DNA of 64,000 nucleotides from Bacteriovoracaceae bacterium (lineage in GTDB: Bacteria; Bdellovibrionota; UBA1018), in the NCBI GenBank assembly GCA_947447665.1, contig CANFJX010000001.1:211911-275910 (forward strand). The letters run 5' to 3'. Position 1 is the first letter of the stretch, and each line of letters begins with the position of its first letter. Positions 30,348-64,000 of the stretch are shown one piece after another. Both the position numbers and the translations under genes were made by a program. The notes beneath the pieces were generated by a model. The model ran no database searches, was not told the DNA's origin, and saw only the letters and a program-made list of their open reading frames with translations.

Positions 30348-30381
30348 TTTATTAATTTAATAAAATAGAAGGAATATTAAA

Positions 30382-31968: not shown

Positions 31969-33056
31969 AGGTACTTATTGTTGACGACTCGGTCGTATTT
32001 AGATCCCAAATCGCTGCTGCACTGACAGGCACCCCCCAAATCGAGGTCGTCGGATCAGCTCCGAATGGGAGCATTGCGCTTCAGAAGCTTGATCAGCTCT
32101 CGGTGGATCTAGTGACCCTGGATATGGAGATGCCAGACATGGACGGCATCGCTGTACTAAAGGCGATTCGAGAACGCAAACATAAGGTACGAGTCATCAT
32201 ATTTTCTGCCCAAACGATCCGAGGCGCAGAAAAGGCGCTTCAGGCGTTGAAGGCGGGAGCAGACGACGTGATCTCAAAGCCGTCCAGCAGCGAAGAGGCG
32301 ACGGATTACAAATCCCCTCAAGAGCGAATTCGGGAAATTCTAGTGCCAAAAATTCACCAATTCCTAGAAAAACGGGAGAAAACTTCGCTTACTCCAGAAC
32401 GCCGCGAAGAAAAACTCGAACTATTTCCCAAAACTCCCCCTCTAGGAGCATTCGAAAAACTCCCTCTGACGGGATTTCAGCCCTCAGCTGTGGTCATTGC
32501 TTCTTCGACCGGAGGCCCGACTGCCCTTGAAACCATTTTTACGCAAATCCCACAATCATTAGAGATCCCTATAATCATAGCCCAACACATGCCACCCGTT
32601 TTTACACAAATACTAGCCAAGAGACTAGGGGACCTCTCGAAGAAGCCATGCAACGAGGCTAAACATGGCGATATTTTAAAGCCTGGTCACATTTATGTCG
32701 CACCTGGAGACTACCACCTCCAAGTAGCCCACTCCTCAGGTGAAGTCGTACTGGAACTCAATCAAGGCCCGCAAAGGAACTCTGTTAGACCAGCTGCCGA
32801 TTATCTTTTTGAATCTGCGGCGGCGGTTTTTAGAAATCGGCTTTTAGGAATCGTACTTACCGGAATGGGGCAAGATGGTCTACAGGGCTCTATTGCCATT
32901 AAGCAAGCCGGGGGCCGCATCCTGATCCAGGACGAACCATCGTGTGTCGTCTTTGGCATGCCGGGAGCGGTATTCAAAGCCAATTGCTATGATGGAATGG
33001 GAGATCTCCAGATGATTTCCGGCGTACTACAAAAGTTATCGGAAAACCTACATTAA
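31965..33056 (+). CDS. cheB: Chemotaxis response regulator protein-glutamate methylesterase CheB
   Basis: The receiver ([11 protein letters not shown]...[10 protein letters not shown]) is followed by a methylesterase domain ([16 protein letters not shown]). Confidence 0.85.
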
Positions 33057-33072
33057 ACTAAGGGGGGAACTG

Positions 33073-33459
33073 ATGAAAAACTTTGGACAATTCCTAGTTG
33101 AAAAAAAAATTCTCTCCAAGGAGCATCTACTCGACTGTTTTTTAGAGCAGCTCTCCTCAATGCCAGCGATTTGTCAACTAGCAAGAGATAAAAACATTTT
33201 AAGCACAGACCAAATTCTCCAGGCTCTCGAGCTTCAGTCAAAAAATGAAATCGGATTTAAAGAGGCATGCCTGAATTTAGGACTTTGGAGCAATGAGACT
33301 GATACAGCCGTCAAAAAAGAGCTATCATTGATCCGTACGCCCCTTGGAAATATCCTACTCAAACGCGGTTTGATCAGCCTCCATGATCTCACCAGGGCTC
33401 TGGACGAATTTTTCTCTGATGATAGTCATTTATCATCTATTCCTAATTCCTCTTCTTGA
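33073..33459 (+). CDS. Standalone T2SSE_N/MshEN-like domain protein (putative c-di-GMP-binding)
   Basis: The 128-aa protein has repeated segments fitting the MshEN consensus RLGxxLLxxGLIxxxxLxxALxxQ. These are FGQFLVEKKILSKEHLLDCFLEQ, KNILSTDQILQALELQ and LGNILLKRGLISLHDLTRALDEFF. Confidence 0.45.
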   Translation: MKNFGQFLVEKKILSKEHLLDCFLEQLSSMPAICQLARDKNILSTDQILQALELQSKNEIGFKEACLNLGLWSNETDTAVKKELSLIRTPLGNILLKRGLISLHDLTRALDEFFSDDSHLSSIPNSSS

Positions 33460-33513
33460 ATTCCACCCGAAAAATGCCATAATTAGAGCATAGAAGGCTG
33501 GAAATTAAATACG

Positions 33514-34353
33514 ATGGAATTCTCTCAAGAAAAAATCCGATTTTTTGCAAAATATATCGAAAAAGAACTGGGAATTGTCTATTCAGACTCCAACTACTTC
33601 CAACTCGAACACAGACTGAGCGATATCACTTCTCAGCTAGGACTTAAAAGTCTCGAGGACCTCTGGATGAGGGCGACCTCAGGAATCGATACTCAACTCA
33701 AGGAACTCCTTCTAGACATTGCAACTAATAACGAAACCAGTTTTTTCAGAGACCCTTCCCTATTTGTCGGTCTCGTAAAATCGATTGTCCCCGAGCTTTT
33801 GTCGGCTAACCCCCAACTGAAGGAACTTCGAATCTGGAGCGCTGCCTGCAGTAATGGCCAAGAGCCCTACTCGATTGCAATGGCCTTAGATGAGGCTCGA
33901 TCTGAAAATCCAAATTTTCCCAATTATAAAATCCTTGCCACCGATTTTTCTGAGCGGGTTCTTTCTCGAACCAAAGCAAGAACGTATTCCCAATTGGAGT
34001 TGCAGCGAGGACTTTCGGCTTCTCGTCTACAAAGATATTTTGATCCCGGATCAGCGCCTAACACTTGGGTACTCAATAGCCGAATTCCGCCCTCAAACTT
34101 TCAGTTTCAACAACTCAACCTTCTCGATCCCTGGAATTTTGACCATAATTTTCATATCGTGTTTTGTCGTAACGTTCTCATTTACCAAAACGTCGACAAT
34201 AAAATTCGAGTGATCGACAAGATTTTAAAAGTTTTTGAGAAGGATGCTTATCTTGCCCTGGGAGCTGCCGAGAGTCTACTAGGTATCTCAGACTTGTTTG
34301 AACAGGTGCATTTCGAAAATTCCGTTTTTTATCGAAAAAAGCGGTCGAATTAA
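33514..34353 (+). CDS. cheR: Chemotaxis protein methyltransferase CheR
   Basis: The SAM-binding region IWSAACSNGQEPYSIAM and the CheR N-terminal helical domain are present. Confidence 0.85.
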   Translation: MEFSQEKIRFFAKYIEKELGIVYSDSNYFQLEHRLSDITSQLGLKSLEDLWMRATSGIDTQLKELLLDIATNNETSFFRDPSLFVGLVKSIVPELLSANPQLKELRIWSAACSNGQEPYSIAMALDEARSENPNFPNYKILATDFSERVLSRTKARTYSQLELQRGLSASRLQRYFDPGSAPNTWVLNSRIPPSNFQFQQLNLLDPWNFDHNFHIVFCRNVLIYQNVDNKIRVIDKILKVFEKDAYLALGAAESLLGISDLFEQVHFENSVFYRKKRSN

Positions 34354-37067
34354 GCTGCAACAAGCTCCTCTGGATCAATGACGGTAATTGTTCTACCCCC
34401 CAGGACAAGATTGCCTTGAATACCTCGCTGGTCCGCTATAGGAGGTTCTAAGTTACCGTTTGAACTCGCGATATCTATGATTTGCTTCACTTTGAAAGCA
34501 AGATACCTCTGATGACTCGCCATGACGATGACTTGAATTCGACTTCCGGTCGAGGCATTCACTTCCATCGCCGAACCTAAAAGCTCACTCATATTTAAGA
34601 TGGGTAAGATTTGTTTGCGATAAGGAATCACATTAAAATTACCGGACTTCTGAATTGAGTCAGCATCAAACTCCTCAAGCCTAAACACTGAATTTCTAGG
34701 AATGGCAAAAACCCCTGGAATGCTGAGCTCAAAAAGTAACCAGTCCGCGCTCTGAGTTGACCCATTTTGTAATTGAGTTTGTAACTTCTTCTCTTTACTT
34801 TTGAACAGTTCGGTCCGTATGTGAGCGATCTTCGCGATGCCATCAACACTCAAAAGAAGGCCAATGGTTCCATCCGATAAGAAGGTTGCTCCAGAATATG
34901 CGTCTAGTTTTTTTAGACTCGGCGCAAGCTCCCGCACGACTGCATCTTCAAAGTCACGAATCTCGTCCACAATGAGTCCAAAATTTTTACCGCCCTCAGC
35001 TTTCACAACCACTACCGTGAACTGACTCGGAAGAACCGACAGCTGAGAAGAAAACAGAACAGCTCCAAGCGAGACAAGCGGAACTGACTCCGCTTCGCTT
35101 TCTCGGAGTAAAATCCCCCCCTCAAGTTCACAAATGAGTTGTTTTCGGACCTGCTCGTCGATCTGAATAAGCCGGACAATTTGATCTTGAGCCACTCCAA
35201 ATTCCTGTCCCCCTGCCATTACGAAAAGACAGTTCTTAATATGAACTGACTTCGGGATCGGCAACTCCAAAACAAAACAGGTCCCCTTTGATTTTTCAGT
35301 TTCAATTCGGATTCGCCCGCCAATACCCTCGACACTCGTTTTTACAGCACTGGTACCCACGCCACGACCAGAAATCTCCGTAGTCTGTGCTGCAGTACTG
35401 AATCCCGACTCAAAAATAAATCCATAGACTTCAGCATCCGGCATTAGAGCAGCTGCGGCCTCAGTCCTCATCCCCTTGCTCACAATTTTTTTTCGGATCG
35501 CCTCTACATCGATGCCCTTACCATCGTCGCGGACTTCGACCATGACGTGGTCATTCTTGAGAAAGGCCCGGACCAAGAGCATCCCTTTTTCACTTTTACC
35601 TAATCTCACTCGCTCCTCTGGAGTCTCGATCCCGTGATCAATACTGTTACGAAGCAAATGACTCATCGATGCGTTGAGAACTTCAGAAATGGAACTATCC
35701 ACTAGTAAATCTTCGCCTTCTATACGAAGCGAGCAGGATTTTTTGGTTTTTTCGGTTACGTCTCGCACCAGCCGTGGCAAAGTTTTAAAGACATTTTTTA
35801 ATGAGACTTTTCTGACCTCGGTAATTTTTCCCTGCACCATGGCGTTTACTTTGTGAAGCTCGTCGAGCAAGTCTCCGAGTTGGGTTACATCTTTGTCGGA
35901 CGAGTATCGCTTCTCGAGCGTTAAGACTGACTTATTGACCATATTCCTCACGACGGTCATCTCGCCAGAGGCGCGCAGTAACTGATCTAAAAGCTGAATA
36001 TCGATTTTAATACTGTTTTCTTTCACAGGGTGCGCGGTGCTCGCATTGGCGCTCGAGTCAGCTTCTTGTGCAGCTTCTTGTGTATCCGAGGGTGGTTCAA
36101 TATTGCCACCTCCTAAGATCACAGCGTCTGAAAAAACCTGGCAAAGATCCTCTAAATTATGTTCTTGCTGGATCTGCGTATCAAACTCTTTCAACAGTCC
36201 TCTAGAAATATCGACTACCTTGAGAGTGGCGGAGATAAAGGGTTGAGAAATTTTCAGGGTATTACCTTGGACCCGCTTCAAGACATCTTCGAAGCGATGG
36301 TAAAATCGATGGAGAGTTTGAGGCTGAAAAAAACTACTGGCCCCCTTGATTGTATGAACTATTCCAAAAAGGCTATTGAGCAATTCCTTCTTGGTAGGGT
36401 TCTGCTCCAACTCAAGAGCGAGGCTTTCAATCTGCTCAAAGCATCCCTTGGTTTCCTCAATAAAAGCGCAGAGTAGCTCCAAATCTTCGTAAATCGAGGC
36501 AATCCTTTTAATCAACTCGCCTGATAGCACCGAGGCGAGAGCCCCTCGATCGAAAGGCTTCTCTAAAAGCCCTACTTGGCTGAGGGGTTCGATTTTAGAT
36601 AGCAGTTCGGCTCGTTGACTATCCGCTAAAATGAGAAGTGGAACGACCTCTAAGGCTTTTGTGAATTCTGATCGAAATGCCAAAGCACTCATGTCTCCAA
36701 GCTCGGCGGGACAGATGACCAATAATATTCGAGAATGGTCTTGCCGTAAGCGTTGAAGAGCCTCTGCTCCAGAATGAGCCCTGACAATTTCAATACCCCA
36801 GTCGGCGCTGAGAAGCTCGGCCTGGTTAGTCGACTCCGGATCTAATGCGCAAATTAAAACGGTCGGTTTTATTTTCGGGTTAGCAGTCTTGAGCGGTAAA
36901 GTTCTGGACTCAATTTCTTTACAAAGATTGGCCCAGCTCATCCCTGCGTCAGGTGATTGATTCATCTGAGCAGACCTCGTACCATCAGAATTTGTAGGTT
37001 CATGACTCAATTTACTTCCTATGTTCCCTTTCGGAACAGAAGGATAGAAACTTGAGTCGAGAGGCAC
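34350..37067 (-). CDS. Second hybrid CheA-like histidine kinase (degenerate N-terminal REC-like - HPt - HATPase - CheW-like x2)
   Basis: It has the HPt motif HTIKGASSFF and HATPase motifs (LRNSIDHGIE, GRGVGTSAV), followed by two CheW-like segments. It is convergent with cheR. Confidence 0.8.
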   Translation of the reverse strand: MPLDSSFYPSVPKGNIGSKLSHEPTNSDGTRSAQMNQSPDAGMSWANLCKEIESRTLPLKTANPKIKPTVLICALDPESTNQAELLSADWGIEIVRAHSGAEALQRLRQDHSRILLVICPAELGDMSALAFRSEFTKALEVVPLLILADSQRAELLSKIEPLSQVGLLEKPFDRGALASVLSGELIKRIASIYEDLELLCAFIEETKGCFEQIESLALELEQNPTKKELLNSLFGIVHTIKGASSFFQPQTLHRFYHRFEDVLKRVQGNTLKISQPFISATLKVVDISRGLLKEFDTQIQQEHNLEDLCQVFSDAVILGGGNIEPPSDTQEAAQEADSSANASTAHPVKENSIKIDIQLLDQLLRASGEMTVVRNMVNKSVLTLEKRYSSDKDVTQLGDLLDELHKVNAMVQGKITEVRKVSLKNVFKTLPRLVRDVTEKTKKSCSLRIEGEDLLVDSSISEVLNASMSHLLRNSIDHGIETPEERVRLGKSEKGMLLVRAFLKNDHVMVEVRDDGKGIDVEAIRKKIVSKGMRTEAAAALMPDAEVYGFIFESGFSTAAQTTEISGRGVGTSAVKTSVEGIGGRIRIETEKSKGTCFVLELPIPKSVHIKNCLFVMAGGQEFGVAQDQIVRLIQIDEQVRKQLICELEGGILLRESEAESVPLVSLGAVLFSSQLSVLPSQFTVVVVKAEGGKNFGLIVDEIRDFEDAVVRELAPSLKKLDAYSGATFLSDGTIGLLLSVDGIAKIAHIRTELFKSKEKKLQTQLQNGSTQSADWLLFELSIPGVFAIPRNSVFRLEEFDADSIQKSGNFNVIPYRKQILPILNMSELLGSAMEVNASTGSRIQVIVMASHQRYLAFKVKQIIDIASSNGNLEPPIADQRGIQGNLVLGGRTITVIDPEELVAA

Positions 37068-51809: not shown

Positions 51810-52055
51810 TTACTTACCCTTATTGGATTTAGACGGAGAAGCTACCTTGCTAGCGGAAACTGTGTCACTCACGACACTCTTGCCTGTAACATCAGAACCA
51901 GCCGCGCAATCGGGCTCGCCGCTCTGCCCTGTCCCAACTTGCCCTGCCGCTTCAGAATCACCGGATAGCCTTGAATTCTCTGCTGCGAAACCTGGGGCAC
52001 TCAGGGCTGAAATTAAAACCAAGCTCAAACCAGAAATTTTAATAAAGTTTTTCAT
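51810..52055 (-). CDS. Small secreted Gly/Ser-rich, likely disordered protein (Bdellovibrio hit-locus Bd0108-like by position)
   Basis: It has a signal peptide (LVLISALSAPGFAAE) and a low-complexity mature region. It lies immediately upstream of the YD-repeat gene and the Tad cluster. Confidence 0.45.
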   Translation of the reverse strand: MKNFIKISGLSLVLISALSAPGFAAENSRLSGDSEAAGQVGTGQSGEPDCAAGSDVTGKSVVSDTVSASKVASPSKSNKGK

Positions 52056-52090: not shown

Positions 52091-53800
52091 TCAAAAAGCA
52101 AGACTTACTCCAGCCGGCCTAATGATATCTAGAAGACCCTGAAACGAGGTCGTCACCTGGGCAGCCACCTTTTTTCCGGCCTGACTGCTCACTTCCTTGA
52201 TCCCACCACTATTGTTGTAAGTAACTGTAATTGAGCCCAAAGCTGGGTCAGAAATTTCGATTGGCTTTGAGATCTCATTATACTTAAAATTGATCTGCTC
52301 TTTATTTTGATCAATCAGCGTTCGAATTCGACCTAGACCATCGTAAATCAACTTAACACCTTTACCTTCTGAGTTTTTAGCGAATGATAAATTCCCCTTA
52401 GAATCGTATTGAAACTCAGACCAAATTGATTTCTTCTTATCTTTGACAGGATACTTGACCACGCGATCTACCTTATTAGCTTTCTGATCGTAGTGCAGCT
52501 CCGTCACTTCATAGGGCGTTGTCTTCTTGGTGACATGCCCCTTAGCATCATAGACGAACTGAGTCTCATCGCTCCCCTGCTTAATCACCAGAGGCAACCC
52601 GCAACACTCGCTATAGGTGGTCTCCACCTTATCCCCATCAAAATCAGCAATCAACTTATAGGTCCACTCCTCACCCGTTGGCTTGACCTTGGTCAGATAC
52701 TGATACTTACTCTGCGACAGGACTTCCGATCCCTTCTTACTTACAACAGAAACTGAACTATTACCCTTATTTGCTGAGTTACTCCCGTAATCATACTCAG
52801 TCACAGTTCCATCACGATCTTTAACTCTCAGAACGTTCTCCTGCCGATCCATTCCATAATAACTAATGTTCATTGCAGTTTTGTCGACGTACCCAATCTC
52901 AATCATATTATGACGCCGTTGATCATCATAACGATAGCTATAGCTGTTACCGTCGACGTCCTTGCTCTGAGTGAGCTCGCCACCAGCGTTATAAGTGTAA
53001 ACAGCTGACTTCCCGCCCTCGCCGTCCATCTGAGAGACTAAACCCTGACTATTGTATGAAAAAAACATTTTCCGATTTAAGTTATCGACCAATTTTTTTA
53101 GATGTCCGTCGGCGCCGTATTCAAAGGCAATGTAATTTCCGTTTTTATCTGAAATTTTTGATAAATGTCCTTGATTATTAAATTTCTCAACCCGACCCGA
53201 ATCGGCCAAATTCCGCACATAACCGTCGCTCGTTTTAGTTATGTACTGATAGTTAAAACGATTGGACTGCAACTGAGTCCCCGTAGCAAGTTCCCGCGCC
53301 TTGATCTTTCCCTGAGCTTTAAATGCTTCCCACTGCTGATTTCTAAAGGAGGCATCGGCTCGCAGCCGACTCTTGTAATCGACTAATTGTGCTGCAGTGC
53401 CCAAGGTTCCCTCCTGCTGAGCCACCTTGGCAAGGCTATCGACTGCTTTCTCTAGCTCAGAGGCACTGAAGGCGAGGGGATTAAACCGATTCTCAGCCCC
53501 TCCGCCATATTCATGAACCACCACGCTGCCATCGGCAGATACGGTTAGATAAACCTCGAACTCATTACCCCAACCCCACCCAAACATTCCACGATAGGGA
53601 CTTTTTGAGTTATAAACACGCTCCAGTTTGGTTTCAAATCCACCGCTATAGATGGCGTCGGTATAGGCGATGAAAAAATTTCCATTCTTCAAGCTAACAT
53701 TTGCCTGCAAATCTTGCCCACCAAAAAAAACACCCAGAGTCACCAACATGGTGATGCCAAAATTTAATTTCATTGCGTGAATACCCCCAAAAAAGAACAA
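52091..53800 (-). CDS. Secreted YD-repeat (RHS-family repeat) protein without a recognisable C-terminal toxin domain
   Basis: It has a signal peptide and multiple YD repeats (YDAKGHVTKKT, YRYDDQRR, YTYNAGGELTQSKDVDGN); 569 aa. Confidence 0.7.
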   Translation of the reverse strand: MFFFGGIHAMKLNFGITMLVTLGVFFGGQDLQANVSLKNGNFFIAYTDAIYSGGFETKLERVYNSKSPYRGMFGWGWGNEFEVYLTVSADGSVVVHEYGGGAENRFNPLAFSASELEKAVDSLAKVAQQEGTLGTAAQLVDYKSRLRADASFRNQQWEAFKAQGKIKARELATGTQLQSNRFNYQYITKTSDGYVRNLADSGRVEKFNNQGHLSKISDKNGNYIAFEYGADGHLKKLVDNLNRKMFFSYNSQGLVSQMDGEGGKSAVYTYNAGGELTQSKDVDGNSYSYRYDDQRRHNMIEIGYVDKTAMNISYYGMDRQENVLRVKDRDGTVTEYDYGSNSANKGNSSVSVVSKKGSEVLSQSKYQYLTKVKPTGEEWTYKLIADFDGDKVETTYSECCGLPLVIKQGSDETQFVYDAKGHVTKKTTPYEVTELHYDQKANKVDRVVKYPVKDKKKSIWSEFQYDSKGNLSFAKNSEGKGVKLIYDGLGRIRTLIDQNKEQINFKYNEISKPIEISDPALGSITVTYNNSGGIKEVSSQAGKKVAAQVTTSFQGLLDIIRPAGVSLAF

Positions 53801-53809
53801 AAATTAAAA

Positions 53810-54670
53810 TCAAACGTCAATCTTAACCACTCTCATGATGACAAAGAAACCCGCAATTTCCAATACTATAATTACCAAAATACATAACCACCCTAGAGGA
53901 GTGGTAAAGAGGGGCCTCATCAGATCTGGGTCAGATTGATTCAGTATAAAGCCCAGAATCGGTGGAAGTGACATGACCAGAACCCCTTGATAAAATCCCT
54001 GGGCGGTCAGTGCCGCAATCTTATTCTCGACCTTAATTCGCTCTCGAATCGTAGTCACAATCGTATCAAAGGTCTCCGCCAAGTTTCCGCCGGTCTCCCT
54101 CAAGATATTTACCGAAGTCACAAACATTTCCACATCATCTGCGGGTATTCGTTTGGCAAGGCTCAAAAATGCATCCTCGATGGAAACACCCAACTTATTT
54201 TCACTCAGCACCAAGTTAAACTCCTGCTGAATCGGATTCGGCATTTCTTGACTCACGAGAGCCAAAGATTGGACCACTGATAGCCCCGACTTAAGCCCAT
54301 TAGACATCAAACTCAGACCGTCAACCATTTGAAGTACAAATCGATTCACTCTCCTTAAGTAATACCAATCGACTACCGGTTTAGGCGCCTTCCACCCAAT
54401 TACAGTCGTAACAATCGCGATTGGCAACCCTGGAATAATATTAGGTAAGAATGAAATAAATACAATTGATCCGAGACCGAAACTAAGTAAGAAGAGCCCG
54501 ATCAGAATCCTTTCAGAGGGCACTTCTATGAACATCATTGCCAGCTTCTCTACAATATAGTCACGAGTCCCAAGAGACTGAAATCGGAGCCAATCGAAAA
54601 ATCGGTTGCTATAGTGGTAAGCAAATAAAAAGCATGAAATTCCAAAAAGTAAGATTCCTATTAACTTCAT
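53810..54670 (-). CDS. tadC: Tad/Flp pilus assembly inner-membrane platform protein (TadB/TadC, T2SS-F family)
   Basis: It has the polytopic GspF-like domain and lies in the Tad cluster. Confidence 0.7.
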   Translation of the reverse strand: MKLIGILLFGISCFLFAYHYSNRFFDWLRFQSLGTRDYIVEKLAMMFIEVPSERILIGLFLLSFGLGSIVFISFLPNIIPGLPIAIVTTVIGWKAPKPVVDWYYLRRVNRFVLQMVDGLSLMSNGLKSGLSVVQSLALVSQEMPNPIQQEFNLVLSENKLGVSIEDAFLSLAKRIPADDVEMFVTSVNILRETGGNLAETFDTIVTTIRERIKVENKIAALTAQGFYQGVLVMSLPPILGFILNQSDPDLMRPLFTTPLGWLCILVIIVLEIAGFFVIMRVVKIDV

Positions 54671-54691: not shown

Positions 54692-56851
54692 TTATTTGGA
54701 GGCAAAGAGTCCTCTTGAAATTTTCATTCCCTTGGCTTCCATTTCTTCTACAAACTTTGGAATAAACCCTGTTGGAACAAATCTTCCGATAATCTTACGC
54801 TTCTTATCGAGCCCTTCTTGTTTGAAAACAAAAATATCCTGAAGGCTCACAACCTCGCCTTGCATCCCTACCACTTCAGTTATATAGGTTACCTTTCTGG
54901 CGCCGTCTCCCAGCCGAGACTGCTGAATAATCAAGCCGACAGCCGAAGCAATGTTTTCACGAATCGCCTTAGGAGACAAACCCAACCCTGCCATCATCAC
55001 TAGGGTCTCTAGCCTTGCTAGGCATTCCCTAGGATTATTAGAGTGAAGGGTTGTCAATGATCCGGAATGACCGGTGTTCATAGCCGATAGCATATCCAAT
55101 GCCTCACCACCTCGGCACTCTCCAACCACAATTCGATCTGGTCGCATTCGGAGGCAGCACTTAATCAGATCACGAATGCTCACCTCGCCCTCACCCTCAA
55201 TATTTTTAGGACGAGTCTCCAATCGAACCACATGCTCCTGACCCAGCTGGAGCTCAGCTGAGTCCTCGACGGTGATAATTCTCTCGGTGGAGGGAATAAA
55301 GTTAGACAACACGTTCAACAACGTGGTCTTACCAGAGCCAGTGCCTCCCGACACCACAATATTGAGCTTGGCCTCAACGCAACACCGAAGAAAATCCGCA
55401 ATTTCTTCGGTAATCGAACCAAACTGAATTAAATCCTTATACTCGATCCGCTTCTTTGGAAATTTTCGAATCGTGATGGTAGGGCCCCGGAGCGCTAAGG
55501 GCGGGATAATCACATGAACTCGCGAGCCGTCTTGAAGGCGAGCATCCACGTAGGGAACCTTCTCATCTACCCTCCGTCCGAGCGGAGTCACGATTCGCTC
55601 GATGACATTCATCATTTGACTCTCGCTCGAGAAATTGACCTTAGACATCTGAGGCTTTCCGCCTTTTTCAATATAGATTTGGTCCCGGGCGTTCACCATG
55701 ATTTCAGTGACACTATCATCGGCTAGCAAGTCCTCAAGCGGCCCAAGTCCGAGAGCCTCATCGAGGACTTCCTTCAACATTTGAGCCTTGAGCTCCCGAC
55801 TACTAAGTAAAGCATTCGTATCTTCTTTACCTAAAATATCTAAGACTGCCTTCTGAGTCCTCTCACGAAGTACCGCACGCTGCTTAGAGTCGCTCGTATC
55901 GGTATTCATCTTTTTAAGATCCATTTGATCCACTAATGCCTTATGGATCCTCAGCTTCATTGCCGTCCACGGGTCGAGCTGAGCTGCTGAACTCCGACCA
56001 AAAGGACTCCCGCCTCCATCCTTATTAGAGAGAGCAACAGATTCTTGTCCCACGCCCTGTGCCTTGGCAACAACACCGGTCGGCTTTTTGAGCCGACCTA
56101 GTGTCTCAAGGAGGTTACTCTGTTGCATCTTTCGAACAATGTCATGGTAAGCTCTTGCGATCGGCGTCCCAGCGGCTGAGATACAAAGGGGAGTACTCTT
56201 GGCGAGCGAGCCCTCGCACGTCCCAACGTCATCAGGGAGAGCCGCGTAGATAGGCCTACCAAGATTTTTTTGAATCATCTGAGGATTAACGAAATTATTT
56301 TGGGAATACCTATTAATGATGACTTGCACCATCTCGGGAGGGAAGAGTAGCTCCTGAATTTTTGTAAGTATTCTCCTGGTTTGATTGATTACGATTAAGT
56401 CGGGAGAAGTAACGACAAAAATGAGAGTCGCAAACTCAAAGGTCTTAAACGCCGCCGCCTCGGTCCCATTCCCGCAATCAATCACAACGTAATTGAAAAC
56501 CTGGGTAATCGCCTTGAGAAACCTCCCTAACCCGTCCAGATCAATATCTCGAGCTACAATGGCATCTCTAGGCGCCCCAATGTAGCTATAACCCGCTGCT
56601 GTATTCACCATAAAAGGGGCAAGCGTCTTTGGATCGACAGGGCCTGGTGGCATTTTAGAAACGTCAACAATGTTCTTCTGAGGGTTTTGACCAAGAATAA
56701 TATTCTGATCCCCCAGACTCGCCAAATCGAGATCCACAATCAGAGGCCTCTGCTTAAACTCGAGCAAGTGAGATATCGCGAGGTTCGCTGCAAAGACGCT
56801 CTTTCCAACTCCCCCCTTACCTCCTACAACAGCTATAATGTGTCCAGCCAT
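54692..56851 (-). CDS. Fused TadZ/CpaE-like ParA/MinD ATPase plus TadA/CpaF secretion ATPase
   Basis: The N-terminal 270 aa carry the deviant Walker [12 protein letters not shown] (MinD/ParA/CpaE type). The C-terminal 400 aa carry the CpaF Walker [18 protein letters not shown], Walker B and His box. Confidence 0.8.
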
Positions 56852-56869: not shown

Positions 56870-58573
56870 TCAGTTAACTTTTACTCTGAAATTTTTCTTT
56901 AGATCCTCGGTCCCATCAGATGCGTTCTCTATAATCTGTGGGGTAACAAAAATAACAAAGTTACTCTTATTTTTTCGATACGCCTTAGAATGCAGCAAAT
57001 TAAATAAGGGAACCGTGGTATTGCTTGATGTTCCGGAAGCGCCCCCAGTTGGGTCGTCCTTGTTAAATTCCGTCGCGACGTTCTGACCGTTTACCCCAGC
57101 AATGGCTGCACTTTCATTCGACTTAACGTAAACCTTGGTATTCACTTTATGGGTGGCAGTCACAGGCGCACCACCACTTGTAGAAGCCTGACCCACTAAG
57201 TCTGTCTGATCAAGTTCCATATCCATTTGAATATCTTCACTTTGTCCTAGGATCTGCGGAGTCACTGCCACGGAGAGCCCGACTGCCTTGCTTTGGCTAG
57301 TCATTTGGCCATTTTGGCCAGCAACCAGAAATGGATACTCCGTCTGCTCTTTTAGGGTGGCGGGCTGCCCGCTACGAACCACCAAGGTCCCCGTTTTAAG
57401 AACTCTTGCATATCCAGCAGTCTGAAGACTACTTAACTTCGGAAGCAGACTTGAGACAGTCCCCCCGAAAGATGCCGCATTAGCACTACTACCGGCTGCG
57501 CCCGCGGCATTCTGGCCAATAGTAATATAGGGGTCAGAGGTAAATCCAGGCTGCCACTTAAATCCAAAAACTTTATTATAATCCTTGGCTAACTCTACGA
57601 AGTGGACTGTTACACGAACGAGTTTTTCATTTTTCCTAGGCGGCGCTGGTAGCACCATAATAAAATTTTGTACTAAATTTCGTTGAGCAACCCGCTGAGC
57701 AGTCAAGTCCTTCTCTAAAAGAGTACTCGGCTTGATCTCAGGAAGATAAAGGGAGGCAATCTGGGCAGCTCGTTTCGCCTCATCTAATGAATTGGTCGTG
57801 CCCTCTAAAAAAATCATCCCGTTCACCACTCGAGTTCTCACGTTGGGGGCGAATGCAGAAATATCACCTTGAATTCGATTGGCTAAGAACTGCATCGCCA
57901 AGGGCGATAGCACCGTTAGATTCATAACAAAATCGAGATAGGTTTTATCTGAGATCACTGCATAAAGGCGGCCGTAATCGGCAGGAACCAAAACCTCACC
58001 TTCGATCACAATTTTAGGACCTACGATTCTGATAGTAATACCTTCAATATCTCGGAGTAGGTCCGTGACTTCGGCCTTAATCCTGAGCAAGTTGCTCCCA
58101 GTAACCCGAACCACAAATATAATGCCAATATTGCCTTCTTCATCTCTGATCGTCACAGTCGTTTCGCCAGCCTTCAGAGGCTTCAATACCACCTGCTTCC
58201 GATCCCCAATCTTAGCTAGAGTTGCTGTCACAACGAGAGGATTTCCATAGCTAATACCAGCGGGTGTCATGTTCGCGTCGAAATTTAGATCGACCGCTTT
58301 ATCCTCCCCTGTCGTTAACAAGAGCCGACGCCTATCGGCAACCTCCTCAGACTGATCGTAGGTAACTCGAGACTTCCTATATTTTTTCTGCAGTGGTCCG
58401 GACGCACTAGGGTCAGCGGATTGAGCAGGAGCACTCCGTGGTCTGTCCGAAGCGGCTGGCTGGCCTGCTACCACTCCAGACTGAGCGTCTTCAGCCCGAG
58501 CAAAACCCATGAACGAAGTAAAAATAACTAAAGTCGCTGAAATCAAAATAGTGATTGTATATTTAGTCTTCAA
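56870..58573 (-). CDS. cpaC: Tad pilus secretin CpaC/RcpA
   Basis: It has a signal peptide and a C-terminal secretin domain (...TVPLFNLLHSKAYRKNKSNFVIFVTPQII). Confidence 0.8.
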   Translation of the reverse strand: MKTKYTITILISATLVIFTSFMGFARAEDAQSGVVAGQPAASDRPRSAPAQSADPSASGPLQKKYRKSRVTYDQSEEVADRRRLLLTTGEDKAVDLNFDANMTPAGISYGNPLVVTATLAKIGDRKQVVLKPLKAGETTVTIRDEEGNIGIIFVVRVTGSNLLRIKAEVTDLLRDIEGITIRIVGPKIVIEGEVLVPADYGRLYAVISDKTYLDFVMNLTVLSPLAMQFLANRIQGDISAFAPNVRTRVVNGMIFLEGTTNSLDEAKRAAQIASLYLPEIKPSTLLEKDLTAQRVAQRNLVQNFIMVLPAPPRKNEKLVRVTVHFVELAKDYNKVFGFKWQPGFTSDPYITIGQNAAGAAGSSANAASFGGTVSSLLPKLSSLQTAGYARVLKTGTLVVRSGQPATLKEQTEYPFLVAGQNGQMTSQSKAVGLSVAVTPQILGQSEDIQMDMELDQTDLVGQASTSGGAPVTATHKVNTKVYVKSNESAAIAGVNGQNVATEFNKDDPTGGASGTSSNTTVPLFNLLHSKAYRKNKSNFVIFVTPQIIENASDGTEDLKKNFRVKVN

Positions 58574-59406
58574 CGCTTTACTCCCTGACTCTTAGCCTTC
58601 GCGATCGCTTCTGCGCCAACCACATCAACCAAGCCTGCCATTGGAAGCGGAACACGCTCTAAATCATCGTTATTCCTCAGTGCCACCGAAAGTGCGTTAT
58701 CACCATTATTAATCAAAATCGCGAGAGTCTGAACCTGAGCCGGCTCAACCTCGACTGTTACGGTGGAAAAAGTAAAGTCATCAGCCAGCGACTTAACTCG
58801 CTCTTTCCCGCCCATGGGATCGATCTCGACACTTCGGGCCACATTATTCGTGATATAGTGTCCAGTTGCCAATACAACCAGATCTTGCAACACGGTCTTG
58901 GCAACCTTGTTTTCCTTTCCTGCACCCACATCGACCACCGCAACTAGATCGATTCGATCCCCGGGCTTAATCAACTTAGACACCCCAGTCAGGTCATTAA
59001 TAGGGATTGAGTAGGCTCGTTTACCTGGAGTTACCTGCGTCGAAAGGCCTGTTCGAGTTCCAGGCTCAGTCATTTTATTGTAGGTAATCTGCTCACCCTT
59101 CTTAATAGGAACCACTGCAATGCTCCCGGCGATTCCCCTCAGGGTCTTGGAAGTCTCCTTCTCGTCTTCCTTCTTTTCTAGGGAAATAGAGGATGGCTCT
59201 AAGTACCTTTTTGGAATGGGCTTAAACTCGAGCATCGGCTCGTTTATCGTCTCCATCTCAAGAATATCTTTTTTAGCAACTAGCACTAAAACCTCTGAGC
59301 CATTTCGCTTCTTAGCTTCATCCTCAATACTCGACACGTAGCTGTTCATAAAAATGACTGCTATGATGGCAAATAGGGCAGCAAATCTAACTGTTTTGTT
59401 ATTCAT
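58570..59406 (-). CDS. cpaB: Flp pilus assembly protein CpaB/RcpC
   Basis: It has an N-terminal TM followed by SAF-like domains. It is translationally coupled to cpaC. Confidence 0.7.
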   Translation of the reverse strand: MNNKTVRFAALFAIIAVIFMNSYVSSIEDEAKKRNGSEVLVLVAKKDILEMETINEPMLEFKPIPKRYLEPSSISLEKKEDEKETSKTLRGIAGSIAVVPIKKGEQITYNKMTEPGTRTGLSTQVTPGKRAYSIPINDLTGVSKLIKPGDRIDLVAVVDVGAGKENKVAKTVLQDLVVLATGHYITNNVARSVEIDPMGGKERVKSLADDFTFSTVTVEVEPAQVQTLAILINNGDNALSVALRNNDDLERVPLPMAGLVDVVGAEAIAKAKSQGVKR

Positions 59407-59420
59407 TCTTCACCTTCTCC

Positions 59421-60053
59421 CTAGGGACCATCGACCAAATATTTCAGTTTACTTCCACAATAACTTGCCAACGAACTTCCACTCGCAATCGAAGACATCG
59501 CCGAATATCCCATGAGCGGCGTCACCGGAAATGGTCCGCGTGGATTGTTAAATCCAACCTGATAATTCTGAGTGCAAAGAGTCACAGTGTTTCGAATCCG
59601 AACGTTTGCTCGAGATGCCTTGGGTTCCGATTGAGCCTCATTCGAAGCCTGCAATGCTCGGGGGTTGCTCGGACTTCGGGCGACGTTTTGCACGGTTGCC
59701 TCTGGAGAATAGGAACTATCCCCTGATGAATCTAAGTTCCCTGACACACCCACTAATATCTGGTTCATTTGAAAGGTCATCAGAGTCTGCTGCTTCGATT
59801 TTTCTGGATAAAATGGGCTATTATAGGTGAGAAAAAGGGCCTGTGCCCTAGAATAATTTTGATCCACAATGGATATTTGAATCGCAGTGTTCACATGAAT
59901 CATCAAAATCGCAAGTCCCAACAAAAGGGGCATCAGCAGAACAAATTCAACCATGCTCTGACCGCTCGAATCACAATTCAAGTGAAGAAAATAATGTCTA
60001 GCAACCATTATCAAATATCCCCTTGAGAGTTCCCATTGCTGCGGTACATTCAA
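59421..60053 (-). CDS. TadE/TadG-like pseudopilin
   Basis: It has the TadE-like N-terminal motif SGQSMVEFVLLMPLLLGL. Confidence 0.5.
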   Translation of the reverse strand: MNVPQQWELSRGYLIMVARHYFLHLNCDSSGQSMVEFVLLMPLLLGLAILMIHVNTAIQISIVDQNYSRAQALFLTYNSPFYPEKSKQQTLMTFQMNQILVGVSGNLDSSGDSSYSPEATVQNVARSPSNPRALQASNEAQSEPKASRANVRIRNTVTLCTQNYQVGFNNPRGPFPVTPLMGYSAMSSIASGSSLASYCGSKLKYLVDGP

Positions 60054-60582
60054 CCTCAGATGGCTCTCTTCCTAACCAGCTCTCCGATGTCAAAGTAATC
60101 GAGCTAGGTGGGGACGCCGACGCTGAGCCACGCTTGCGCCCAATTGGAAGGGGAAATAATCTGCTCGTAAATGTGTAGCGAGCCCCGACCATCCACAAAC
60201 TATTATCATCACTCGCTTGATAGAGCCGGCCTGGGCCAAGGTCCAATCCTGGAAAGTCAGCACTCGCCCCGCCGGAACCCTTAGCAATTGAAGGAAACTT
60301 ATCTGACCTTGGTTGATAGGCCGATCTTTTCAACATATAGCCGATAACAAATTGTGCCCTTTGCTGCTGATCGGATGAGTCCGGCCCCGAGGAGAGATAG
60401 GATCGTGCTGCCATGAACGTCGCATAGTGAGCGTAGTTTCCAAATGAAAAAGCCAGAGAAGTCTGAAGCAGAAAAAAGGTAAACCCCAGAAAGAGGGTCA
60501 TTGTCAGAGCAAACTCGACTGTTGACTGCCCGTCACAATCTCTACTGAGAATATGCGCCGAAAAATATTCGGAAGTTTCCAT
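59998..60582 (-). CDS. TadE-like pseudopilin
   Basis: It has the motif DGQSTVEFALTMTLFLGF. Confidence 0.5.
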   Translation of the reverse strand: METSEYFSAHILSRDCDGQSTVEFALTMTLFLGFTFFLLQTSLAFSFGNYAHYATFMAARSYLSSGPDSSDQQQRAQFVIGYMLKRSAYQPRSDKFPSIAKGSGGASADFPGLDLGPGRLYQASDDNSLWMVGARYTFTSRLFPLPIGRKRGSASASPPSSITLTSESWLGREPSEVECTAAMGTLKGIFDNGC

Positions 60583-60823
60583 TAGAATTTATCCTCGGAT
60601 GCATCACTGCAGCACCCTCATCTGGACCAGTAGCTTTCGGATGACCATACTTATAAGCCGAAAAAAATGGACCTGATACAATGGTTAGAACCTTTTTTGA
60701 GATATTCATTTGACCAATGATTGCGGAAATCGCTACGAAGAAAGTAACAATAGCTGAAATCAGCAAAATGTACTCCGTCGTTGCCTGACCAGACGAATCA
60801 TGAACCCAACGTTTATCTATCAT
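60542..60823 (-). CDS. TadE/Flp-like minor pilin
   Basis: It has the motif SGQATTEYILLISAIVTFF. Confidence 0.45.
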   Translation of the reverse strand: MIDKRWVHDSSGQATTEYILLISAIVTFFVAISAIIGQMNISKKVLTIVSGPFFSAYKYGHPKATGPDEGAAVMHPRINSNGNFRIFFGAYSQ

Positions 60824-61359
60824 TGAAGGAGCCCTCCGTCCCTCGCTACTGTGATCATCACTGCAAGCGAAATCATCACCCCATATGGGATTTTGTCTTC
60901 AAGATCGATTGGAGAATAATGAGCCTCCAATCCAGGCACGCAAACTGATAAAATAAAATCAGTTAGTTTTCTAAAAAAATTAAATAGCCGTCCACGCAGG
61001 GCGAGAGAAACCATCGCAAAGCCTCCACCTAATAAAATGGCTAGGATACCTACATGAATGATAAACTCCGGACCACCCCAGGTACCTAGTGCCATCAAGT
61101 ACTTAACGTCTCCTCCACCCAAAAACCTGAGCCAAAACATCCAGCTCACAAGAAGAAAAGCAACCAACAGTCCACCCAACGATTGATACAAACCGCCCCA
61201 AAGTGTTAGACCGGAAAAAAAGCACGAATTGACGATACCCACCAGAGCAAGCGAAACTGTAAACCAATTAAATATTTTCCTTAAAATTAGATCTGAGAGT
61301 ATTGCTGCTACAGAGGCAAGCACTAGAAAAATAGGAGCGTGATTAATTGCTCCAAACAC
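60820..61359 (-). CDS. Prepilin peptidase (A24 family, TadV/CpaA)
   Basis: It is polytopic and carries the GGGDVKYL catalytic Asp motif. Confidence 0.7.
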   Translation of the reverse strand: MFGAINHAPIFLVLASVAAILSDLILRKIFNWFTVSLALVGIVNSCFFSGLTLWGGLYQSLGGLLVAFLLVSWMFWLRFLGGGDVKYLMALGTWGGPEFIIHVGILAILLGGGFAMVSLALRGRLFNFFRKLTDFILSVCVPGLEAHYSPIDLEDKIPYGVMISLAVMITVARDGGLLQ

Positions 61360-61567
61360 TGAGTGGAGCCCTTCCTGATTTTAGATCCTGCTCTAAGACA
61401 GCGCCAACGCGTAGAACAACAAGATCGAGGGATCCAATGATTTGACGTCCAACTTGGGAGGCTCCAACAACAACGAGAGCCACCACGAGCAGGTACTCCA
61501 CTGTGCCCTGGCCTTCTTGGCTCTTTGTGCGATTACTGAGATGTGACCGCGGAGTCAATCTGACCAC
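61343..61567 (-). CDS. flp: Flp/Fap pilin
   Basis: It has the Flp motif GQGTVEYLLVVALVVV (G/EY cleavage motif plus hydrophobic helix). Confidence 0.6.
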   Translation of the reverse strand: MVRLTPRSHLSNRTKSQEGQGTVEYLLVVALVVVGASQVGRQIIGSLDLVVLRVGAVLEQDLKSGRAPLSVWSN

Positions 61568-61733
61568 CTACAGTGCTCACGGCGTTTAATAGGCTAGATT
61601 GAAATTGCGCTTTGAACTTCAAGACGATCATCACTACGATGGCCAACATCAGAAGGTACTCGGTCATCGACTGGCCTTCTTCATCTTTCCAAAGCTTGGT
61701 TAAAAACTTTTTCATAAGCACTCTCTCTTCCAT
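61533..61733 (-). CDS. flp: Flp/Fap pilin
   Basis: It has the Flp motif EEGQSMTEYLLMLAIVVMIV. The likely start is the internal MKKFL. Confidence 0.6.
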   Translation of the reverse strand: MEERVLMKKFLTKLWKDEEGQSMTEYLLMLAIVVMIVLKFKAQFQSSLLNAVSTVGGQIDSAVTSQ

Positions 61734-61808: not shown

Positions 61809-62570
61809 CTAAAAAATACCCAATACTATCGATAGGTTATCGTTCGAATTAGGCTCACACTTAACTAAATTAAACACTTCATTGGCCGCTTGTTCCGGCT
61901 TTAGATTTTTTTGCTTAATTTGACAAATTTGGCTCACCCATTGAGCCTCGTTGTCCACCCGAACACCGTCAGTCTGAAGAATCAACCAGTCCTGAGGCAT
62001 CAGCCTGCACTCGACAATTTCAGGTTCCAGATCCTCGTACATTCCAAGCGCCGTCAAGGGCACCTGATACTGGCTGCCATGAGATGAACCCAACAATGCC
62101 GCTGCTGGATCGACGAGGCGTCCGTAAGTCCTAGGACTCACCAAGGGCACGCCGGTACTGCCCCGAAAAAGCCAAGCCCTGCAGGATCCTATATTCGCCA
62201 GGGCGAGGAAATCTCCATCCAAGAATCCAGTCAGTACGGATGCGCCACCTCGCTCATTAATATTCCTCTTCTTATTGTCTTCAAGAATCTTTTGATTTGC
62301 ATAGATGAGTGCATTAAAAAGAACATTTCCAGCCAGAGAAATATAACTGCGTAAAACAAAGGGTAGAGTAGCGTCCATATCCCGAGAGCCTCGAAGTAGA
62401 AATGCCTCAATCAGATCGCACGCAAGTCGGGAAGTACGGGAACCGGGAGCAGGTCCTCCAAAGCCATCTGCGACAGAGAGAATTCCTCGTTCGGAGTGAA
62501 TCCTAAGTTCGTCCTCTTGCGCAGGCCTGGGCCCCTGTAGTTTAAGACTAGCAAAATAGGGTCGAGTCAT
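61809..62570 (-). CDS. PP2C-family Ser/Thr protein phosphatase
   Basis: It has ILSVADGFGG and further PPM motifs (TDGV); 253 aa. Confidence 0.65.
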   Translation of the reverse strand: MTRPYFASLKLQGPRPAQEDELRIHSERGILSVADGFGGPAPGSRTSRLACDLIEAFLLRGSRDMDATLPFVLRSYISLAGNVLFNALIYANQKILEDNKKRNINERGGASVLTGFLDGDFLALANIGSCRAWLFRGSTGVPLVSPRTYGRLVDPAAALLGSSHGSQYQVPLTALGMYEDLEPEIVECRLMPQDWLILQTDGVRVDNEAQWVSQICQIKQKNLKPEQAANEVFNLVKCEPNSNDNLSIVLGIF

Positions 62571-64000
62571 TTTGGCTGTTCTCCTCCCCCTGGTGGGGGG
62601 TTTTGAACTTGGGGTTGAACGACTGAAGCAGTAGGGTCGGCGACGACTTGGGCTGGCTCAGGAGCTGCCTCGGGTGCTGGCTGAAGCGAAACAAATTTCG
62701 TCAACTTCCTCACGGACCGGTCGTGATAAATATCATCGGGTGGAGCAATCTCGAGGCACTTTTTGAATAGTTTTTCTGCTGCATCGAAGTCACTATAATT
62801 TTCTGCGATGACGGCCTCCGTATAGACTACCTTAGCTTGATCATGAAGGGCTCCTCGAATTCGACTCATCCCATCGTACCCAGCTGGATGGTGGGAATCG
62901 ACTCGAGTTGCTTTTTGATACAACTTAAAGGCACCCATGAAGTCGCCATTTATCTCCGCATTTTTTGCTCCGGCGAGAATAGGGTCTCGCAGCTTTCGGA
63001 TCTTAATCCTGTCTTCTCCAATTCTTAAATGAGATTGCTGAAGTAATTTTTGATCGGTCACGCCGATATCCACTATTTTTTTCAAAGTAGAAATGGAACT
63101 TTGATATTTACCAGATTTTTCTTGAGCGAGACCTTGGCGATACATTCTCCAGCCTTCAGCATTAATTTCTCTTTTCACTTGATCTAATTGGATTTGAACT
63201 TTTTTCTTCTCCTCAATAGCATCGATATCTTTTCTCCAATCAGCAACAGGTCCGTTGTCGGGATCTATCGCTAGAATTTGGGTAAAAAGTTCGCGTGCCT
63301 CTTCGTACTGCTTTTCTTTCATCTTACTTCTTGCGTCTTCAACTAGTGATGCCACCCTCGACTTTAACTGTTCTTCCTCTTCTTTCTTCCTTTTCTCTTC
63401 GTCGATAGATTCCTGTTTTCTTTTACCCTCTTTTGCATAGCGCTGGATCTCCCTGGAATCCTTATAATCTGGGATAATATTGAATATTTTTTCAATTTCA
63501 AAAATTGACTTATCGAAATCTTTATTCTTATAGTAATCAAAAGCTAAAGCATGTTGATCCTCTACAAATTTTCGTTTATCAGCTGGAAGCTTCTCAAAAC
63601 TGAGATCATTGGGAACTCCGGAAGCCTGTACAGTCACCTTCTTAATGGGAGCGATCGGTTTGGCCTTCGACCCAGAGTCGTCATCTAAGAACCACCAAAT
63701 AAACATAATCGCTGCAATGACCACCACAACCTGGGTTCTACGAGGGAGGGCCTTAAATCTTTCCTCAAGCCCTTTACCTTGGGGTTTTACTGACTCCAAG
63801 CCAATGACACCACTCATGCCGGCAGAGGAGCTACCTAATGACTCAGCCGAGTCTTGTGCAAACTCCAGCGGACTATCACTCTCTAGTTGAGGCGAGTGGA
63901 AATCATCTCCAATCTCATCGGGTATGACCTCGAGCTGGGATTTCTGGGCTTCGTACTCATGGTTGATGACCTTGAATTGAAACTCAGTATCTCCAATTTG
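62567..64000 (-). CDS. FHA-domain - TM - TPR-repeat protein (5' end beyond the window)
   Basis: The ORF continues upstream of the annotated Met to the window end. That translation (…QIGDTEFQFKVINHEYEAQ…) resembles an FHA C-terminus. A single TM helix (VVVIAAIMFIWWF) and multiple TPR-like repeats follow. Confidence 0.55.
   Translation of the reverse strand, partial: QIGDTEFQFKVINHEYEAQKSQLEVIPDEIGDDFHSPQLESDSPLEFAQDSAESLGSSSAGMSGVIGLESVKPQGKGLEERFKALPRRTQVVVVIAAIMFIWWFLDDDSGSKAKPIAPIKKVTVQASGVPNDLSFEKLPADKRKFVEDQHALAFDYYKNKDFDKSIFEIEKIFNIIPDYKDSREIQRYAKEGKRKQESIDEEKRKKEEEEQLKSRVASLVEDARSKMKEKQYEEARELFTQILAIDPDNGPVADWRKDIDAIEEKKKVQIQLDQVKREINAEGWRMYRQGLAQEKSGKYQSSISTLKKIVDIGVTDQKLLQQSHLRIGEDRIKIRKLRDPILAGAKNAEINGDFMGAFKLYQKATRVDSHHPAGYDGMSRIRGALHDQAKVVYTEAVIAENYSDFDAAEKLFKKCLEIAPPDDIYHDRSVRKLTKFVSLQPAPEAAPEPAQVVADPTASVVQPQVQNPPPGGGEQPK

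Follow-up and report, generated by a model that had tools for sequence, protein, structure and literature searches.

A TadZA fusion ATPase in the Tad locus of an uncultured member of Bdellovibrionota

A 64,000-nucleotide stretch of DNA from Bacteriovoracaceae bacterium (GenBank assembly GCA_947447665.1, contig CANFJX010000001.1, positions 211,911 to 275,910 of the forward strand; hereafter the window) contains a Tad (Flp pilus) locus, one gene of which encodes a single polypeptide of 719 amino acids where a TadZ/CpaE-type ParA-like ATPase domain is joined to the TadA/CpaF motor ATPase. We propose that this gene, tadZA, which comes from an uncultured member of Bdellovibrionota, is very probably orthologous to the gene for the TadZA fusion ATPase of the Tad (Flp) system of Bdellovibrio bacteriovorus. 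The joining of TadZ and TadA is no artefact and is the standard form in Bdellovibrionota, a group of predatory bacteria. The fusion is already known, having been published with experiments in B. bacteriovorus: a preprint (Tesseur, Denise, Santin & Laloux, bioRxiv, July 2026; 10.64898/2026.07.08.737194) describes an "atypical TadZA fusion ATPase" in tad locus 1 of strain HD100. In the window gene, which is located inside a Tad operon, a flexible, fast-evolving tether connects two nucleotide-binding modules whose catalytic signatures are intact.

Two ATPase modules in one reading frame

Positions 54692..56851 of the window are occupied, on the minus strand, by exactly one open reading frame (ORF), which starts with ATG and comprises 719 codons and a stop codon without any internal stops. 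The preliminary description of this DNA had given the position correctly and had left the strand unsaid. Its central claim, that TadZ/CpaE and TadA/CpaF domains reside in one 719-residue ORF, is borne out by the reading frame itself, by the two Walker A motifs (GGKGGVGKS at residues 10-18 and GGTGSGKTT at residues 502-510) and by the Pfam and NCBIfam matches, all of which agree. An in-frame stop codon 6 codons 5' of the tadZA ATG rules out any start further upstream; the preceding gene, rcpA, ends with its stop codon 18 nucleotides upstream. The GC content of third codon positions is even over three parts of tadZA (0.49, 0.49 and 0.51), so there is no hint of recently spliced foreign DNA in the gene. 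We divide the product into a TadZ domain devoid of the atypical receiver domain (ARD), a linker and a TadA/CpaF motor, an annotation that relies on the ORF and on Pfam and NCBIfam matches, the gene being full length in the loci of 77 species.

A genome scan, in which one genome per species was considered, found a relative of the window protein in 319 genomes, and the best 80 loci, at 70-88% identity, were examined. The ORF is uninterrupted in 77 of the 77 complete loci, with a distance of about 490 residues from one Walker A motif to the other and the first of them always 10-12 residues past the start, while in the remaining 3 of the 80 loci tadZA is interrupted by contig ends. The top genome match to the window protein (88% identity) comes from an uncultured "Oligoflexia" metagenome-assembled genome (MAG). 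In the protein database, more than 120 clusters of proteins of 713-746 amino acids carry the same pair of Pfam domains at 78-89% identity. Across the 80 related loci, tadZA encodes the most conserved protein of the locus, with a mean identity of 77% against 37-65% for the others.

If the single ORF were an artefact of assembly or sequencing, in which a missed stop codon or frameshift had joined adjacent tadZ and tadA genes, one would look for relatives where the two are separate, and three database gene calls do split the pair, in the loci L081 (303 + 409 amino acids), L082 (391 + 370) and L083 (250 + 499). In all three, however, homology runs on through a +1 frameshift. The break in L082:6001-8272 is at a run of eight A residues within the TadA domain, that in L083:6001-8212, a contig at 2.8x coverage, falls within the last helix of TadZ, and that in L081:6001-8179 lies within the conserved motif DPW..KL.IH. 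These splits are probably indel errors (of long-read sequencing) or pseudogenes and not natural split forms. The idea that they are natural split versions that show the ancestral state was considered and rejected, all of them being +1 frameshifts with continuous homology. Given the identical unbroken ORF in every complete locus and in the clusters mentioned above, we attach next to no credence to the artefact explanation.

The preliminary description had also raised the possibility that the fusion is simply the universal form of CpaF. Within the locus of this clade it is indeed universal, but across bacteria it is not, because two loci considered below (L084 and L085) contain unfused CpaE and motor genes and because the alignment with C. 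crescentus CpaF covers nothing but the motor of the window protein.

The TadA/CpaF motor

The C-terminal part, residues 293-719 with the stop codon (54692..55975, minus strand), was delimited by a phmmer comparison with CpaF structures from the PDB and by residue mapping. Pfam places T2SSE at residues 367-644 (E value 5e-64) and the TadA-family model of NCBIfam matches residues 333-658 with 332 bits. Residues 297-706 align with residues 84-486 of C. crescentus CpaF (8rkd/9e24) with an E value of 8e-125 and 420 bits, the next family, GspE/FlaI, reaching at most 137 bits. The layout, with a first N-terminal domain (NTD1) bearing a three-helix motif, a second one (NTD2) and a RecA-like C-terminal domain (CTD), covers the domain plan of CpaF. 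This plan and the roles of the catalytic residues are taken from Hohl et al. (PMC11300603). By alignment, K287 of the CpaF P-loop (Walker A) corresponds to K508 of the window protein, E312 of the Asp box to E533, E357 and R359 of Walker B to E578 and R580, H382 of the His box to H603, and the arginines R217, R223 and R347 to R438, R444 and R568. All these residues are invariant in 32 orthologues. Judged by its sequence, the C-terminal part is a complete CpaF/TadA motor. The disordered NTD0 of CpaF (residues 1-79) marks the site where the TadZ domain and the linker are attached in the window protein.

The TadZ-type N-terminal domain

The N-terminal domain, residues 1-245 (56117..56851, minus strand), is a ParA/MinD-type ATPase domain according to Pfam, NCBIfam, AlphaFold2 (AF2), Foldseek and the alignment of orthologues. 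Pfam recognizes CbiA/ParA/AAA_31 at residues 4-213 (E value 1e-12), and the MinD models of NCBIfam score about 68 bits over residues 4-248. The domain has a deviant Walker A motif (K12-G-G-V-G-K17-S18), the switch I residues D40 and D42 and the Walker B residue D125; K12, K17, D40, D42 and D125 do not vary among 32 orthologues, and KGGVGKS at residues 12-18 satisfies the Walker A-like consensus of TadZ, K/RGGxGx[S/T]. An AF2 model of the domain built from a diverse alignment has a mean predicted local distance difference test score (pLDDT) of 92 and is ordered up to about residue 260. It has the ParA/MinD fold, and its top Foldseek match is 3ea0, with a template modelling (TM) score of 0.92 and a root-mean-square deviation of 1.8 Å. 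The same structure is the top sequence-profile match among solved structures (157 bits), followed by MinD, FlhG and FleN.

A profile search of 5.8 billion proteins retrieved, besides fragments of fused proteins, proteins of about 400 residues that combine Response_reg with ParA and score 190-240 bits, many of which carry the JGI name CpaE. With the identical profile MinD structures score 75-119 bits and FleN 103 bits. Two of the CpaE relatives (L084 and L085) belong to complete Tad loci with Flp, TadV, TadE, RcpC, CpaE, T2SSE and two T2SSF genes, the CpaE gene being located 12-23 nucleotides upstream of the T2SSE motor gene. In an alignment of 79 relatives of the N-terminal domain, K12, G13, G14, G16, D40, G47, D48 and D125 vary little or not at all, and the P-loop lysine K17 is substituted in 23 of the 79, in agreement with the TadZ consensus as it is quoted in the preprint.

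There is no room for an atypical receiver domain in the N-terminal part of the window protein, where residue 10 is already the first of Walker A and the stop codon precedes the ATG by 6 codons, unlike in 60 of the 79 aligned relatives, which are extended at the N-terminus by more than 90 amino acids. We therefore describe the N-terminal module as a predicted TadZ-type domain and not as a full canonical TadZ. The label is based on the fact that CpaE/TadZ proteins score above MinD in the profile search and on the position of the domain between rcpA and the TadA part.

Some observations count against the label and would suit an alternative in which a MinD/FlhG-type ATPase, serving, for example, in positioning at the membrane or division site, was recruited independently, making the protein a MinD-TadA chimera. 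The solved TadZ structure from E. rectale, 3fkq, is only at rank 38 with 44 bits, and 3ea0 and MinD/FlhG are closer; MinD, FlhG and FleN structures outrank this TadZ in both profile and fold searches. The MinD models of NCBIfam (68 bits) slightly outscore the actinobacterial CpaE model, CpaE_hom_Actino (50 bits), although all of these scores are under the cut-offs of the models. Many orthologues bear the JGI name "septum site-determining protein MinD", the Walker A motif is of the full MinD type, KGGxxKS, and redistribution from pole to pole within sub-second times, which recalls Min proteins, is reported in the preprint. These points are opposed by the scores of the unfused CpaE/TadZ proteins of Tad loci, which with the same profile exceed those of MinD. 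The domain also occupies the exact position of tadZ between rcpA and tadA, and the family cut-offs of MinD (at least 200 bits) are far from being reached (68 versus 213 bits for TIGR01968 and 68 versus 202 bits for TIGR01969). The domain does not end in a free C-terminus with a membrane-targeting helix but continues into the linker and TadA, and the gene is surrounded by Tad genes, with no minC or minE neighbours. Finally, divergent fused homologues and CpaE relatives can do without the lysine of the P-loop, as the TadZ consensus allows. Independent recruitment of a MinD-type ATPase is thus improbable, and we retain the assignment of the domain to the TadZ type.

The linker and the question of one polypeptide

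The segment between the modules, residues 246-292 (55976..56116, minus strand), stands out by its conservation, its pLDDT and its variation in length. Mean identity to 76 orthologues is 69% over residues 1-250, falls to 38% over residues 251-292 and then rises to 78% over residues 293-330 and 86% over residues 331-719. A short conserved motif, LL..L..LKKP.G, is found at residues ~247-259 and is followed at residues ~260-292 by a variable linker rich in G, S, A and Q. Prediction of the structure of the linker, which the preliminary description had recommended, yielded low confidence (pLDDT of 52-56 at residues 270-292, AF2 with a diverse alignment), in agreement with its poor conservation. The AF2 model of the full-length protein, built from a shallow alignment of 32 sequences of 78-89% identity, has a pLDDT of 45 and is unusable for inter-domain contacts. 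In 37 divergent fused homologues the inter-domain segment measures 49-92 residues. The LL..L..LKKP motif is restricted to the closer subfamily, with roughly at least 45% identity to the window protein, and is absent from distant fused homologues. It may represent a MinD-like membrane-targeting helix or an element that binds RomR.

With such a disordered and poorly conserved linker, it could be asked if the fusion is merely genetic, two separate proteins being produced in the cell either from an internal translation start near TadA or by proteolysis of the linker. Conserved methionine codons at residues 298 and 310 would provide possible starts, and one gene caller did place the start of TadA at the equivalent of M310 in L081. 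Yet no Shine-Dalgarno-like sequence precedes any internal ATG, GTG or TTG codon over residues 240-345, the best candidate being a 4-mer before V307, and M298 and M310 belong to a helix that CpaF has conserved too. In B. bacteriovorus, moreover, TadZA-msfGFP is stated in the preprint to accumulate at full length, and the fusion to be functional. Production of two separate proteins is, in our judgement, highly improbable, and we treat TadZA as one polypeptide.

Relationship to TadZA of Bdellovibrio bacteriovorus

The window genes follow the order rcpC-rcpA-ATPase-tadB-RHS-small protein, the same as bd0113 to bd0108 in the hit locus of HD100 (PMC5430801, PMC3818213). There, TadB is encoded by bd0110 and the ATPase by bd0111 (PMC5430801), and Bd0109 is an RHS protein whose gene is co-transcribed with bd0110-bd0111 (PMC3818213). 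The preliminary description had proposed a comparison with Bd0110 and Bd0111 of HD100; a reading of these as separate TadZ and TadA genes has to be abandoned, since one of them is TadB and the preprint reports the TadZA fusion. The two proteins share a TadZ region without ARD, a linker and a TadA part, their genes are both placed between rcpA and tadB and adjoin RHS/hit genes, and in neither case is tadC adjacent. According to the preprint (10.64898/2026.07.08.737194), the B. bacteriovorus TadZ region has no atypical receiver domain, tadC of HD100 is encoded elsewhere, and TPR and FHA signalling proteins are found near the tad genes.

The same source reports that tadZA of HD100 could not be deleted and that CRISPR interference (CRISPRi) depletion of tadZA-tadB blocks stable attachment to prey and invasion. 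It was further reported there that TadZ plus the linker are necessary and sufficient for binding of RomR and that polar enrichment depends on RomR. The notion, voiced in the preliminary description, that the fusion joins pole targeting to the motor is supported by analogy with these results. The canonical route through the receiver domain does not apply, since the N-terminal domain does not have it; in B. bacteriovorus the route instead leads, as the preprint reports, through the binding of RomR by TadZ plus linker, and in the window's organism it may lead through a polar hub of this kind.

Some points weigh on the other side of the orthology. It is based on gene order, architecture and homologues 73-75% identical in genomes labelled Bdellovibrio, whose loci are devoid of TadV as in that genus, and no homologue of RomR was identified in the window. 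A search with the protein of "Bdellovibrio sp. ZAP7" gave no match named B. bacteriovorus among the best 120. Even so, we consider descent from a common TadZA gene to be very probable.

Distribution of the fusion and decay of the P-loop

When 1.84 billion representatives of clusters at 50% identity were searched exhaustively, the best 150 matches included about 60 representatives of 38-61% identity in which a ParA-like domain starts at residue 1-25 and is followed by a TadA part at ~320-720. The names given for these fused homologues are Bacteriovoracia, Bdellovibrionales, Bdellovibrionota and, in one case, a Spirochaetota MAG. Their genes are found in several surroundings. L089 is a further hit-type locus with a fused gene, L088:7001-9187 (GCA_040400605.1) belongs to a Tad locus of the canonical type, complete with TadV, secretin, TadB and TadC and devoid of an RHS gene, and L087:7001-9151 (GCA_043825615.1) belongs to a Tad locus where no secretin gene is adjacent. 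L086:7001-9139 is an orphan fused gene beside kdsA/lptC/rpoN in the MAG that is labelled, as given, Spirochaetota.

The Walker A motif of TadZ is invariant in the window's clade, and in distant fused homologues it takes forms such as GAKGGVGQT, GGKSGVGTS and GAQDGVGSS. Either the lysine of the P-loop or the entire motif is gone in nine fused homologues of 38-47% identity (P0131, P0134, P0139-P0143, P0165 and P0190), with sequences such as DVGSRTNAL and GNESIVHTA in its place, the motif being lost in P0165 and P0190.

We lean, by a modest degree, towards the view that the fusion lacking ARD is an old and fixed architecture. It would be universal in the hit-type locus of Bdellovibrionota, as in all the complete loci examined here, and present also in canonical loci with TadB and TadC (L087 and L088, from lineages without firm taxonomy) and in the Spirochaetota-labelled orphan, the P-loop remaining intact in the window's clade and being degenerate or lost in distant branches. 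If this is true, the nucleotide cycle of TadZ would be needed in some lineages only, possibly in those with dynamic pole-to-pole behaviour.

How the fusion may work

By analogy with its homologues, the TadA part would form a hexamer beneath the TadB/TadC platform, as CpaF of C. crescentus does (PMC11300603), and the hexamer would power the extension and retraction of the Flp pilus through the RcpA secretin. Each motor subunit carries one TadZ part, a 1:1 ratio, and this part is expected to bind nucleotide (ATP) and to dimerize in the manner of ParA/MinD proteins. Together with the linker, it would dock on a polar hub, which according to the preprint is RomR in B. bacteriovorus, and in this way would place the motor and the machine at the pole used for invasion of prey. 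The hub protein would then supply in trans what the receiver-like targeting module of canonical TadZ does. With one TadZ per motor subunit, we would expect a hexamer with up to three potential TadZ dimers on tethers of about 45 residues. As for its origin, the simplest scenario that we can suggest is that the stop codon and a short intergenic gap between tadZ and tadA were lost and that the receiver domain was lost too.

A positioning ATPase of the dimer type on every subunit of a hexameric motor amounts to an unusual hard-wiring of the site of construction to the source of power. The Tad machine of B. bacteriovorus is essential for prey invasion, a point that has been made experimentally for the model strain already. 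The contribution of the window is comparative: throughout the phylum the fusion is the rule, the ATPase motifs of TadZ are strongly constrained in the clade and relatives of Bdellovibrio retain TadV. These facts could guide the design of mutants and the dating of the fusion; they open no new question.

The Tad locus and its surroundings in the window

A Pfam scan covered the window ORFs of at least 200 amino acids and the smaller ORFs that flank the locus, and the presence of genes in related loci was counted by tblastn, with the loci that have enough flank among the best 80 as denominators. All genes of the Tad locus are on the minus strand in an operon-like array, and the coordinates that follow refer to that strand. 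Starting from the upstream end, a gene for a TPR protein (62567-63817) directly precedes that for a PP2C-like phosphatase (61809-62570), which is kept in 43 of 49 related loci and is itself upstream of the pilin genes. Two translated ORFs are candidates for Flp-type pilins: one of 66 amino acids with the sequence G/QSMTEY (61533..61733) and one with G/QGTVEY (61343..61567). Among the candidate pilin and pseudopilin ORFs, only the first shows a weak match to Flp1_like (E value 2e-6), which is under the curated cut-off. They are followed by the gene for a prepilin peptidase of the TadV type (Peptidase_A24, E value 2e-10; 60820..61359) and by a pseudopilin-like ORF of 93 amino acids with G/QATTEY (60542-60823), seen in translation.

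Two TadE-like genes come next (59998-60582 and 59421-60053). As listed, these ORFs overlap by 56 nucleotides; the downstream one has a TTG start, and its real start is probably further in. The rcpC/cpaB gene (58570..59406) is identified by Pfam RcpC and by TIGR03177, with 138 bits against a cut-off of 71, and is present in 62 of 62 loci; the rcpA secretin gene (56870..58573; Pfam Secretin, E value 7e-18) is present in 67 of 67.

Downstream of tadZA, at a distance of 21 nucleotides, is tadB, which encodes a T2SSF platform protein (53810..54670; E value 4e-17; 73 of 73 loci). It is followed by a gene for a DUF6531/RHS-repeat protein recognized by Pfam, the positional counterpart of Bd0109 (52091..53800; 60 of 60 loci). 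The array ends with a gene for a low-complexity protein of 81 amino acids with a signal-peptide-like N-terminus, the positional counterpart of Bd0108 (51810-52055). For this small ORF no sequence match could be detected in any of 58 loci, although L081-L083 also have an ORF, of 82-104 amino acids, at the same position.

No tadC (a second T2SSF gene), no tadG and no gene for a RomR-like protein were found among the scanned ORFs of the window; what the scan for them turned up was ordinary response regulators and chemotaxis genes. A chemotaxis cluster at 27146-37067, with two CheA-type kinases (913 and 905 amino acids), a methyl-accepting chemotaxis protein, CheB and CheR, and a gene for a large hybrid GAF-PAS histidine kinase at 18928-22164 form part of the ordinary chromosomal context.

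Comparison with known systems

MinD, FlhG and FleN have the same fold as the N-terminal domain and the same full deviant Walker A motif, KGGxxK[ST], and they form nucleotide-dependent dimers that position other machines. The window protein differs from them in that it remains under their family cut-offs and has neither a terminal amphipathic helix nor Min or flagellar partners, and by profile CpaE/TadZ is closer to it. The structure 3ea0, from an uncharacterised "ParA family ATPase" of Chlorobium tepidum, shows a stand-alone, receiver-less domain of about 245 residues that is not fused to TadA.

KilF of the Kil system of Myxococcus xanthus (PMC8460266) resembles the window protein in being a Tad-type hexameric ATPase of a predator with an extra regulatory domain at the N-terminus, and Tad systems of Bdellovibrionales were reported to be phylogenetically close to Kil. 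The extra domain of KilF, however, is an FHA domain and not a ParA/MinD one, and Kil is assembled at sites of contact with prey instead of being pre-positioned at the pole.

In the canonical arrangement, known from A. actinomycetemcomitans and C. crescentus and seen also in L084 and L085, separate TadZ/CpaE and TadA/CpaF represent the same modules in the same order. The P-loop (KGG.G.[ST]), the switch region (D-x-D...G-D) and the aspartate of Walker B are common to CpaE proteins and the N-terminal domain of the window protein, and the CpaF of C. crescentus, present in the PDB as a protein of 501 amino acids, corresponds to the motor part. The canonical system has a stop codon between the two genes and a receiver-like N-terminal domain on TadZ, both of which are missing in the window protein, and it is only in the fusion that a 1:1 stoichiometry is set between an ATPase of the dimer type and one of the hexamer type.

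The closest known counterpart remains the TadZA of HD100, and the two loci differ in the peptidase gene. B. bacteriovorus and all Bdellovibrio genomes were reported to be without TadV, PilD being used instead (PMC5430801), and the Bdellovibrio-labelled genomes found here likewise have loci without it, namely those of the group labelled "Bdellovibrio sp. ZAP7" (L049-L053, L056, L061, L062 and L070). Of 54 related loci, 40 have the TadV-type peptidase, that of the window included; since it is absent from the Bdellovibrio-labelled group, its loss there looks derived, and the window locus is among those that have retained it.

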